NCBI GenBank assembly: GCA_036676495.1
Contig: JAKFCT010000019.1
Location: 504-64,503 of the forward strand
From: Candidatus Sericytochromatia bacterium
GTDB lineage: Bacteria > Cyanobacteriota > Sericytochromatia > S15B-MN24 > UBA4093
Reading direction: 5' to 3'
DNA length: 64,000 bases
Positions 47,906 through 49,405 of this stretch are shown here, piece after piece. Position 1 is the stretch's first letter, and every line of letters begins with the position of its first letter. The notes beneath the pieces were generated by a model that saw only the letters and a program-made list of their open reading frames with translations, ran no database searches and was not told where the DNA came from. The position numbers were made by a program, and so were the translations under genes.

Positions 47906-49405
47906 TCAGTCGTCCTTTTGCCGGGTCTGGTTGACGGCGCCGGCGATCCGGCCGTCGATGCTCGACGGGAAGAGCTCCCGGTTGGTCGGAGGATCGACGC
48001 TGATGGCCTGCCGGATCACCACGCGGTTGGGATCGTGCACGACCCAGAAGTCCTTGCCCAGCCCCTCGGCGTTGCGGACCAGGATGGTGTCGTAGCCCAT
48101 CTCCTTGGCGTAGCGCGGAAGGAAGCGGGTGTAGGTGTTGTCGACCAGCGGGTTCAGCGGAACGCTCGGCTTCTCGTAGAGCTGGTTGATGGGATCGGCC
48201 AGGTCCTTGGGGTCGACGTTCTTCTTGGCCCACTCCAGGAACTGCTCCTTCGCCTCGAGGAAGTCCAGGACCTTGCCCGTGGCCACCTCGGCCGTGAAGA
48301 CGACCGGCGTCTTGTCCACTCCCACCGAGCGCGCGAAGGTCACGTCGTCGGCGTAGACCAGCCCGGTCTTGGGCGAGGTCCCCAAATAGATCCCCGAACC
48401 GAAGTCCCCGATGTCGCTGGGCCGGAAGCCGTTCTCGATGATCAGGTCGCGCACTTCCTGGCGGGTGCCATGAAAGGTCATCCGGCGCTCGCCGACGTGG
48501 TCGAGCAGGTCGAAACTTCCCCGATCCACGTTGGTCACCGAGAGGTTGCGCTGGCCCTGCACGCTCCAGTCCACCGCTTCCTGCACTTGCTTGATTCCCT
48601 CGGCGCGGATCTCGTCGAGGCTCATGTCGGTGGTCCGGACGCCGCCGTGCTCGGCCTGCAGGCGCGCGAGCTTCTCGCGGACCTTGTCGGCCACCACGTC
48701 GTAGGCGCGCTGGACGGAAGAGGGGTTGATGTTCTTGGGCTTGATCGCCTCGGCACCCTTGTGCAGCGCCTTGCCGGCCACGACGGTCGCCACCTGGAAG
48801 CCCGCGTTCGCATAGTCCGCGCCCAGCTCCTGGGCTTCCTTGTCGAGTTCCTGGCGGGTCTGGGAGGTCGCGATGTCGACCTGATTCTTGGCGAACGACG
48901 CTCCGAGCGCGGCCAGGCCGGTCACGCCAGCCACCGAGCCGAGGGTTCCGGCGATGGGAAGCAAGGCGAGCGAGGCTCCTCCGGTGAAGGGGCCGGCCAG
49001 GAAGGCGACGGCTACCAGGGCTGCCGATCCCAGACCCGCATAGGAGGCTCCCAGGTTGGCCGCGGCCACCACTCCGTCGATCGGATCTTTCTTGAAGCGC
49101 TCCGCCACCGAGCCGAAGGCCTTGTCCGGCCGCATGAAGAGGTCCGCGATGCCCCGGCCGATGCCCTTGAGCGTCTCCCAGGGCTTGCCGAAGGTATCCG
49201 CAAGGCTCTTGGCGGCGACCGCGAGGGCCTGGCGATTGCCTTCCTTGAGCTTCTGCATGGTGGAGAGCTGCAAGCGGTCGGAAACCGCTGCGAGACGGGC
49301 CGTTCCCCGCCGCATGGCGGCCGTGACGCTGGCCGCGACCGGGCGCGTGCCGCGCGGCGCGTGGGGTGGTTTTTGCCGCGGACGGGAAGTTTGGATGTCG
49401 GCCAT
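47906..49405 (-). CDS. PARP-like (H-Y-[D/E] clade) ADP-ribosyltransferase domain protein with glycine-zipper membrane region
   Basis: ATG 49405 after GGAGGGGG. ART core about 47999-48496: MTFHGTRQEVRDLIIENGFRPS, FGSGIYLGTS, VVFTAEVATGKVLDF, KDFWVVHDPNRVVI. Gly/Ala-rich hydrophobic segments at 48884-49081. Confidence 0.65.
   Translation of the reverse strand: MADIQTSRPRQKPPHAPRGTRPVAASVTAAMRRGTARLAAVSDRLQLSTMQKLKEGNRQALAVAAKSLADTFGKPWETLKGIGRGIADLFMRPDKAFGSVAERFKKDPIDGVVAAANLGASYAGLGSAALVAVAFLAGPFTGGASLALLPIAGTLGSVAGVTGLAALGASFAKNQVDIATSQTRQELDKEAQELGADYANAGFQVATVVAGKALHKGAEAIKPKNINPSSVQRAYDVVADKVREKLARLQAEHGGVRTTDMSLDEIRAEGIKQVQEAVDWSVQGQRNLSVTNVDRGSFDLLDHVGERRMTFHGTRQEVRDLIIENGFRPSDIGDFGSGIYLGTSPKTGLVYADDVTFARSVGVDKTPVVFTAEVATGKVLDFLEAKEQFLEWAKKNVDPKDLADPINQLYEKPSVPLNPLVDNTYTRFLPRYAKEMGYDTILVRNAEGLGKDFWVVHDPNRVVIRQAISVDPPTNRELFPSSIDGRIAGAVNQTRQKDD

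Follow-up and report, generated by a model that had tools for sequence, protein, structure and literature searches.

What role does a PARP-like ADP-ribosyltransferase (ART) play in a bacterium when no partner gene stands beside it: that of an effector aimed at another organism, or that of an enzyme regulating its own cell? The question is raised by a gene for 499 amino acids (aa) on the minus strand of a 64,000-nucleotide stretch of a Candidatus Sericytochromatia contig (JAKFCT010000019.1, positions 504 to 64,503), referred to below as the window. An earlier sequence-only reading had described the product as an orphan PARP-like ART fused to a glycine-zipper membrane module and had allowed for both roles, and both are still live. 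Judged by profile and model comparisons, the C-terminal module is a PARP-family ART, with an aromatic residue at the position of the catalytic Glu, and the N-terminal module (N-module) is a helical domain with a family of its own. We tentatively favour reading the protein as a modular effector that inserts into membranes and carries a mono-ART head.

The C-terminal PARP-family domain and its triad

The Pfam model PARP (PF00644) matched aa 287-395 of the query with 30.3 bits (E 3.7e-7; gathering cut-off 26.7), and a precomputed match to the same model is present in most homologues. A profile of 26 family members searched against PDB retrieved chains of PARP14, PARP4, PARP15 and PARP3 with E from 2e-4 to 5e-3. 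An AlphaFold2 (AF2) model on the 26-member alignment had a predicted local distance difference test score (pLDDT) of ~75-95 across most of aa 256-477, and when this model was used in Foldseek the top matches were all PARP catalytic domains (PARP4, PARP1/2/3, tankyrases; E 4e-6 to 1e-4, probability 1.0). Furthermore, the natural C-terminal alignment was compared by hhalign with the canonical PARP-like domains recovered in a search of representative proteins, giving a probability of 98.2% (E 3.9e-13). The identity read by eye is thereby confirmed by profile as well as by structure comparison. The core had been taken as 165 aa; it spans ~185-245 aa including an insert of ~50 aa.

Invariant in all 26 sequences are His312-Gly-Thr-Arg, Gly336-x-Gly338-x-Tyr340 and Tyr351-Ala-Asp. 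The NAD+-binding signature (HGT, GxGxY and a second Tyr) is therefore intact, and the distance of 11 residues between the two tyrosines equals the spacing of Y896 and Y907 in PARP1. The codons of His312, Tyr340 and the Asp452-Phe453 pair lie where they had been placed before (Table 1).

Other families gave little. Weak matches were obtained to DUF3990 (Pfam, E 0.007) and PDC-M13A (PADLOC, E 0.0079), both presumably ART-like families. No match was significant in PADLOC (PDC-M13A, E 0.008), PHROGs (E at least 0.05) or NCBIfam (none). A Pfam scan of the query at E<=10 returned PARP, ApoL and DUF3990 only. This leaves the suggested link to the Tox-ART-HYD toxins without a Pfam match, and identities as Tox-ART-HYD, Arr (Arr-ms), DarT, Tpt1 or exotoxin A were rejected, as none of these models matched the query in that scan. 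WGR and PARP_reg gave no Pfam match in the query either.

The third triad position depends on the register of the last strands. A first HMMER alignment to PARP14 mis-registered them because of the conserved insert: the full-length profile, compared with PDB, set the C-terminus of PARP14 on this family-specific segment. Two alignments agree on another register, and we therefore assign the Glu position to Phe453. In hhalign 'F-D-E-Y-V-V-F-N-P' of the canonical domains is paired with 'K-D452-F453-W-V-V-H-D-P' of the family. When the family profile with the insert deleted (alignment A3) was compared with PDB, PARP4 aligned to the end, with 'GYDTILV' opposite 'GYDSVHGV' and with the Glu of the PARP4 segment 'DDE-FVVYK' directly preceding the partner of Trp454. 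A PARP10/14-like register, set by eye, with Asp452 as third triad residue was rejected, as both alignments put Phe453 there.

Position 453 is Phe in 21 of the 26 sequences and Tyr in the other five, Asp452 is present in every one, and position 447 is acidic throughout (Glu or Asp). By sequence the triad is H-Y-aromatic (H312, Y340, F/Y453) and the catalytic Glu is absent, which places the domain with the mono-ART type of PARP. Of the earlier alternatives, H-Y-D or H-Y-hydrophobic, the second holds and the first does not, Asp452 lying at -1; the comparison with mono-ART PARPs stands. An aromatic or hydrophobic third residue is the mark of mono-ADP-ribosylating PARPs (PARP16 H-Y-Y, PARP10 H-Y-I, PARP14/15 H-Y-L), and a catalytic Glu is needed for elongation of poly-ADP-ribose.

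The insert is helical in the AF2 model, has a mean pairwise identity of 72%, and is gapped against the canonical PARP-like domains in hhalign. We regard it as a candidate substrate-recognition subdomain.

The N-terminal module and its other partners

From sequence comparison and modelling, the N-module is a helical domain family of its own, of ~190 aa and without a Pfam family. The AF2 model computed on 30 diverse N-modules (alignment A2) has six helices, three of them long (aa 108-141, 144-179 and 184-221), with pLDDT 91.5 and a predicted template modelling score of 0.73. The motifs conserved in A2 are HP, a second HP, DPxDG, APFTGGASLALLP ('APFTGGASLA') and KNxVDxAxAxTxxELxxExxELGxD, of which the polar ones lie outside a hydrophobic hairpin. 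This hairpin carries no K, R, D or E, and its two hydrophobic halves flank a conserved PFTGGxS turn; T141, G143, S145, L146 and P150 are invariant in the family. We infer that it may insert into a bilayer. Its flanks show no clear positive-inside bias: on the upstream side 4-5 basic residues are balanced by 4 acidic ones, and on the downstream side the numbers are 3 and 4.

The glycine-zipper description is retained as far as the composition goes: the segment is uncharged and rich in Gly and Ala, and small-xxx-small motifs are present. The segment is however part of the larger helical family, and no Pfam Gly-zipper family matched the query or the 30 N-modules. The earlier statement that a Sec signal is lacking agrees with the hydropathy profile, in which no N-terminal signal-like segment is found and mean hydropathy does not exceed 1.0 in any window before the one that begins at aa 112. 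The Pfam family ApoL, a pore-forming domain, scored 17.3 bits in the query against a cut-off of 25.9 and was matched weakly in 9 of the 30 N-modules (best E 7e-4), always below threshold. In Foldseek the N-module had no significant neighbour; the best PDB match was the alpha-pore-forming toxin AhlB (E 0.5) and the best in BFVD had E 0.3. Matches to alpha-pore-forming toxins, ExbB and holins were set aside as noise, none being below E 0.3.

A full-length family profile was searched against 1.84 billion representative proteins, and here the N-module was found to recur independently of the ART domain. It occurs as stand-alone proteins of ~230-305 aa (e.g. P0033, P0034, P0036, P0037, P0043-46, P0052, P0054, P0058, P0059, P0079), fused to two PLD domains (P0053; PLDc_2, E 3e-26), with HExxH-containing heads giving weak metallopeptidase matches (P0042, P0049-51, P0056, P0066, P0068), and with heads to which no identity could be given (P0062, P0064, P0093). 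The C-terminus of P0062 looked ART-like by eye but was dropped, as the family hidden Markov model gave only E 0.18. Heads thus vary across the N-module superfamily (ART, PLD, peptidase-like, other) and do not vary within the ART family. A word-indexed protein search with the N-module profile returned only 6 proteins.

Additionally, hhalign aligned the N-module with the central region of larger proteins (probability 97.4% for P0065/P0083/P0088 and 97.8% for P0069/P0115). The E-values were 1e-11 to 9e-13 over 159-172 columns, the polar motifs included. P0115 carries an N-terminal eCIS_core domain (DUF4157, E 5e-26) and a C-terminal DUF5614, and in eCIS_core proteins the N-module sits just upstream of the variable C-terminal domain. 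The alignments are good evidence for homology of the N-module to this region of eCIS_core proteins; we do not hold them conclusive, because hydrophobic segments can inflate such scores.

The same ART subfamily forms the C-terminus of the PLD proteins P0061 and P0076 and of a short protein without PLD, P0087. These three keep the motifs of the insert and the 'GYD...EGxGRDY' strand, and have the NAD-binding His replaced ('YVGV', 'LYGG', 'FAGY'). The N-terminus of P0076 appears signal-peptide-like as we read its sequence. N-module, PLD and this ART subfamily therefore occur in all three pairwise fusions, and we read this mix-and-match pattern as typical of effector domains.

Two gene neighbourhoods of N-module proteins were recorded separately. 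The gene of P0053 (L011, 1619-9649) stands between three EF-hand/alpha-beta-hydrolase paralogues, which come before it, and a further double-PLD gene, which comes after it, an arrangement resembling a lipolytic-enzyme cluster. Around P0079 (L008, 3453-6741), HopA1-like, APH-kinase and LanC-like genes lie together, a group that we take to resemble a split lanthionine-synthetase-type set, and an Exo_endo_phos gene adjoins the N-module gene.

Effector or endogenous enzyme

The combination of N-module and ART was found in 25 close homologues of 44-84% identity, all of ~500 aa, and in the more distant P0027-P0031 of the representative-protein search. Named sources are 'Cyanobacteria bacterium UBA8530', a metagenome-assembled genome labelled Pantanalinema sp. 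and Candidatus Sericytochromatia/Tanganyikabacteria, so the named members belong to cyanobacterial metagenome-assembled genomes of Sericytochromatia type. Among the GTDB species representatives scanned with the family alignment only UBA8530 matched; its two paralogues are on different contigs (L006 3697-5138 and L007 2938-4395). Scans with family alignment A1 gave two genome loci and four metagenome loci. P0031 is located on a 5.18-Mb contig of 37% GC, and no second N-module-ART copy is present within the window. Mean pairwise identity in the 26 sequences is 70% for the ART and 62% for the N-module, and the identities of the two modules correlate with r=0.89. From this correlation and the conservation we conclude that both modules evolved together under purifying selection, with no swapping of heads inside the family.

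Homologue neighbourhoods were surveyed for a conserved partner, and in eight contexts no neighbour gene is conserved across the family; the genes downstream differ in every context. A relative of 83% identity (L005) keeps the window order of kinase, PP2C, ART and pepF. In one subclade (L001, L013-L016) the ART gene has uvrA, STK, uvrB and tatA divergently on one side and, on the other, convergent groEL-groES with lexA next; on the short contig L002 only the tatA-ART part is kept. Of the other members, one lies after a zinc-ribbon gene and one between histidine kinases. P0031 (L009, 6588-9341) is on the same strand as and downstream of CheY-CheX-CheX, and P0028 (L012, 7001-12539) on the same strand as and upstream of CheR-HDOD-CheA/CheW. 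The window itself has a methyl-accepting chemotaxis protein gene (56482-57888) 7 kb away and DUF4388 proteins at 49520-51883 and 20287-21120. Such chemotaxis-type neighbours may hint at a chemosensory link, or may be due to chance in signalling-rich genomes.

The label 'orphan' is correct, because no Macro, ARH or immunity-like partner turned up. In the homologue contexts no such family is among the Pfam matches listed within 7-10 kb. The earlier claim that the window holds no macrodomain or ARH enzyme is upheld for the 26 open reading frames (ORFs) whose Pfam matches were inspected (19490-22161 and 26101-63980), among which no immunity-like family appeared either; below ~19 kb the window was not scanned. 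Directly downstream, where a polymorphic toxin would have its immunity gene, no such gene was found, as had been noted; a terminator and the convergent pepF follow instead.

The reading that we lean towards, and hold only tentatively, is that of a modular membrane-inserting effector. The N-module would insert into a lipid bilayer and, as a pre-toxin module for membrane insertion or translocation, would place or deliver the ART head at the membrane. There the head would transfer single ADP-ribose units from NAD+ onto a target, and synthesis of poly-ADP-ribose would not be expected. Mono-ART activity is what the triad suggests; that the target may lie outside the producer cell is above all what we infer. 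An effector is favoured because the N-module is reused with PLD, peptidase-like and other heads, because it precedes the variable C-termini of eCIS_core proteins, and because a PLD-ART relative appears to be secreted. The weak but recurrent ApoL matches, the PLD and hydrolase genes around P0053 and the lack of an immunity-like or hydrolase partner in the contexts are counted on the same side.

Several observations weigh against it. The N-module-ART family behaves, by its sequences, like a vertically inherited core gene, and one subclade keeps the gene between uvrB-tatA and groEL-ES/lexA. There were no tblastn matches on plasmids or phages, for which reason a plasmid or phage origin was rejected. 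Among the scanned window ORFs (19-64 kb) no secretion or injection genes were found, and the query has no signal peptide and, by Pfam, no recognised trafficking domain (T5SS/T6SS/T7SS/eCIS_core); eCIS_core is limited to distant N-module relatives such as P0115. The Foldseek comparison gave no significant match of the N-module to pore-forming or translocation domains (best E 0.5 in PDB). Heads of the PLD or metalloprotease type might just as well belong to housekeeping enzymes anchored in the membrane, and an ART that lacks the catalytic Glu may have little or no activity.

The same conservation is what speaks for the main rival, a membrane-anchored regulatory mono-ART of the producer itself, which we consider a serious possibility of somewhat lower standing. 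Here the hairpin would anchor the protein in the cytoplasmic membrane of the producer, both termini lying on the inner side, and the enzyme would modify cytoplasmic or membrane-proximal proteins, possibly of signalling or chemosensory pathways, as a functional analogue of eukaryotic PARP16. Vertical conservation throughout the lineage, with the ART most conserved and co-evolving with the N-module, fits this reading, as do the housekeeping synteny of one subclade, the lack of both signal peptide and immunity gene, and the aromatic third triad residue, as in the H-Y-Y of PARP16. The two distant members beside same-strand chemotaxis-type genes (CheY-CheX-CheX; CheR-HDOD-CheA) and the window neighbours, namely the PP2C-GAF-PatA_N and large Ser/Thr kinase genes and the chemotaxis receptor gene, are likewise consistent with it, although in signalling-rich genomes such adjacency may be chance. 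It is harder to reconcile with the polar motifs of the N-module, which exceed what an anchor needs, with the occurrence of this module stand-alone and inside eCIS_core toxin-like proteins, and with hairpin flanks that lack a clear positive-inside bias. A hydrolase of ADP-ribosyl groups (Macro, ARH) would also be expected, and none lies near the gene in the contexts examined, though one could be encoded elsewhere.

A stronger version of the effector reading seems unlikely to us. In this version the N-module would be an undescribed, self-sufficient translocation or pore-forming domain that carries interchangeable heads (PARP-like ART, PLD, metallopeptidase and others) across membranes without a dedicated secretion machine. 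It would work like the T domain of diphtheria toxin, colicins or ApoL without being related to them in sequence. The window protein would then be a diphtheria-toxin-like single-chain mono-ART toxin, put together from different components and fixed within the lineage of the Sericytochromatia.

We consider it rather improbable that the PARP-like domain is catalytically dead or not a transferase, serving as a membrane sensor of NAD+ or an ADP-ribose-like ligand, or as an NAD+ hydrolase. The catalytic Glu is absent, and the PLD-fused relatives have lost even the His while other motifs are kept, so the fold of the subfamily can persist without canonical NAD+ chemistry. Nevertheless, the full NAD+-binding signature and Asp452 are invariant down to 44% identity, and PARP10, 14, 15 and 16 are active mono-ARTs without the Glu. 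Least probable is an ART whose substrate is not a protein, for example the end of a nucleic acid, the head group of a lipid or a small molecule, as rifampin is for Arr: the conserved insert beside the acceptor side is unique to the N-module-ART family, a membrane location would suit a lipid or envelope substrate, and DUF3990 and PDC-M13A, both presumably ART-like, were weakly matched, but the query matched no Arr-ms, Tpt1 or DarT model and its nearest matches, by sequence as by structure, are without exception PARPs that modify proteins.

Comparison with described systems also sets the protein apart. With the eukaryotic mono-ART PARPs (PARP10/14/15, PARP16, PARP4) it shares the PARP fold, the Pfam family, the HG[ST] His, the GxGxY Tyr, the second Tyr, the 'GYDS' strand and the hydrophobic or aromatic replacement of the Glu, and its best PDB sequence matches are PARP14, PARP4 and PARP15. 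It differs from them in having only 13-18% identity, a unique insert and a bacterial source in the Sericytochromatia lineage, and in lacking macro, WWE, RRM or other accessory PARP domains. To our knowledge, Glu-less PARP-type mono-ARTs are well studied in animals and almost unexplored in bacteria. PARP16 is described as membrane-anchored (PMC10389827). Its anchor is a C-terminal tail, whereas the predicted membrane part of the query is an N-terminal module of 190 aa with a hairpin.

The bacterial PARPs of Herpetosiphon aurantiacus and Clostridioides difficile CD160 have WGR and a regulatory helical domain, possess the Glu, make poly-ADP-ribose and have a PARG partner (PMC8120803). The query resembles them as a bacterial protein with a PF00644 domain, and is unlike them in having no WGR, no Glu and no hydrolase partner in the eight contexts. 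Tox-ART-PARP toxins of actinobacterial PVC/eCIS show HG[ST], Y, K and E and are linked to a PVC metallopeptidase and an injection locus (Zhang et al. 2012, PMC3482391). There, too, a PARP-like ART is the C-terminal head of a modular bacterial protein, and the N-module is probably homologous to a region of eCIS_core proteins; unlike these toxins the query lacks both the Glu and an eCIS_core domain, and the scanned window ORFs include no injection genes. With diphtheria toxin, an H-Y-E ART with a helical translocation domain, it has in common an ART of the same clade and an alpha-helical domain with a hydrophobic hairpin. The domain order is however reversed, receptor-binding domain, signal peptide and catalytic Glu are missing, and the N-module has no detectable sequence or structural similarity to the T domain. 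Arr and Tox-ART-HYD1/2 (H-Y-D type) are likewise Glu-less members of the H-Y-E clade, and in the query an invariant Asp lies beside the third triad position. The query matches no Arr-ms or Tox-ART-HYD model, however, and its Asp precedes the Glu position by one residue. Tox-ART-HYD toxins are accompanied by immunity proteins (PMC3482391), and none is present at the query locus. As defining features of each are lacking, we place the protein outside the WGR-PARP/PARG systems, Tox-ART-HYD and the classical polymorphic toxins.

PARP-family mono-ARTs and PARP-like heads on bacterial toxins (Tox-ART-PARP, PMC3482391) are already known. What is new is the domain architecture, a bacterial PARP subfamily that lacks the Glu and has a conserved insert, the fixation of this subfamily in the Sericytochromatia lineage, and the N-module. 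Such an ART has been kept throughout a basal lineage of non-photosynthetic cyanobacteria and is tied to a putative membrane module without description in databases. If the N-module were a portable insertion or translocation device, this would be a new delivery principle for bacterial effectors and possibly a tool for protein delivery; if the protein were an endogenous anchored ART, signalling of the PARP16 type would have a counterpart in bacteria, and the protein would bear on the bacterial origin of eukaryotic mono-ART PARPs. Under either reading the N-module merits a family definition of its own.

Gene organisation and neighbouring genes

The ORF listing extends the reading frame to 47906-49438 (minus strand), and the TTG start at 49438 would give 510 aa. 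We used the ATG at 49405 as start because GGAGGGGG precedes it with a spacer of 7 nt. The gene is monocistronic with its own ribosome-binding site and divergent from the PP2C gene, in accordance with the sequence-only reading. Its G+C content at third codon positions (GC3) is 0.88 in a window of 67% GC. A strong terminator had been placed after 61 bp; the hairpin is there, and it begins 11 nt past the stop, inside the 61-bp spacer to pepF. Tat export, considered for the tatA neighbour and the sequence 'MRRGT', was rejected, as tatA is found in one subclade only, the motif is RK in most homologues and an h-region is lacking. The features are collected in Table 1.

Table 1. Features of the ART gene, its product and the adjoining genes (window coordinates)
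Feature	Position	Strand	Evidence or remark
Coding sequence, 499 aa	47906..49405	-	ORF list, translation, 25 full-length homologues at 44-84% identity, GC3 0.88
Shine-Dalgarno-like GGAGGGGG	49413..49420	-	7-nt spacer to ATG at 49405; read from sequence
N-terminal basic region, aa 1-37	49295..49405	-	pLDDT <50; carries the conserved motif 'RGT...ASVTAAMRKGTA' and lacks a signal-peptide h-region
N-module, aa 38-235, six-helix domain of undescribed family	48701..49294	-	AF2, alignment A2, representative-protein search
Uncharged Gly/Ala-rich hydrophobic helical hairpin, 62 aa, aa 111-172	48890..49075	-	Composition, hydropathy, small-xxx-small motifs
Hairpin turn P139-S145 (P139-F-T-G-G-x-S145)	48971-48991	-	Alignment
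Helical linker and N-terminal ART extension, aa 236-295	48521..48700	-	AF2 secondary structure; confident from ~aa 256
PARP-family ART domain, aa 296-480	47966..48520	-	Pfam, PDB profile matches, Foldseek, hhalign
His312 of invariant HGTR motif (NAD-binding His)	48470..48472	-	26/26 sequences; aligned to PARP 'HGT'
Tyr340 of invariant GSGxY motif	48386..48388	-	26/26 sequences; aligned to PARP4/PARP3 'G.GIYFA'
Tyr351, second invariant Tyr, 11 residues after Tyr340	48353-48355	-	26/26 sequences
Conserved ~50-aa helical insert, aa 385-436	48098..48253	-	Between 'EVATGKVLDF' and 'GYDTILV' strands; helices in AF2 model
Asp452-Phe453	48047..48052	-	Phe453 at catalytic-Glu position, Asp452 invariant at -1; hhalign, PARP4 alignment
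Terminator hairpin, GC-rich, 17-bp stem (14 G-C pairs)	47857..47894	.	Terminator scan; common to convergent pepF
pepF, convergent with ART gene	46057-47844	+	ORF list, Pfam
PP2C-GAF-DUF4388 (PatA_N) phosphatase gene, divergent, 115 bp upstream of ART gene	49520-51883	+	
Ser/Thr kinase-AAA_16-TPR-GAF gene, 1512 aa, beyond PP2C gene	51956-56494	-	

Further away, a type I polyketide synthase module (partial KS, AT, DH, KR, ACP and a terminal reductase) is encoded at 57878-63980 on the minus strand, to ~20 bases from the window end, and the gene immediately downstream of it encodes a 4'-phosphopantetheinyl transferase. Two ORFs of 455 and 547 aa without a Pfam match (39700-41067 and 41491-43134, both minus strand; GC3 0.77 and 0.87) are adjoined by a gene for an LPP20-type lipoprotein (43138-44058, minus strand). 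A protein of 640 aa with NHL/teneurin-type beta-propeller repeats is encoded at 29944-31866 on the minus strand. The most extreme GC skew of the window, -0.25 at 46001-48000, coincides with pepF on the plus strand.

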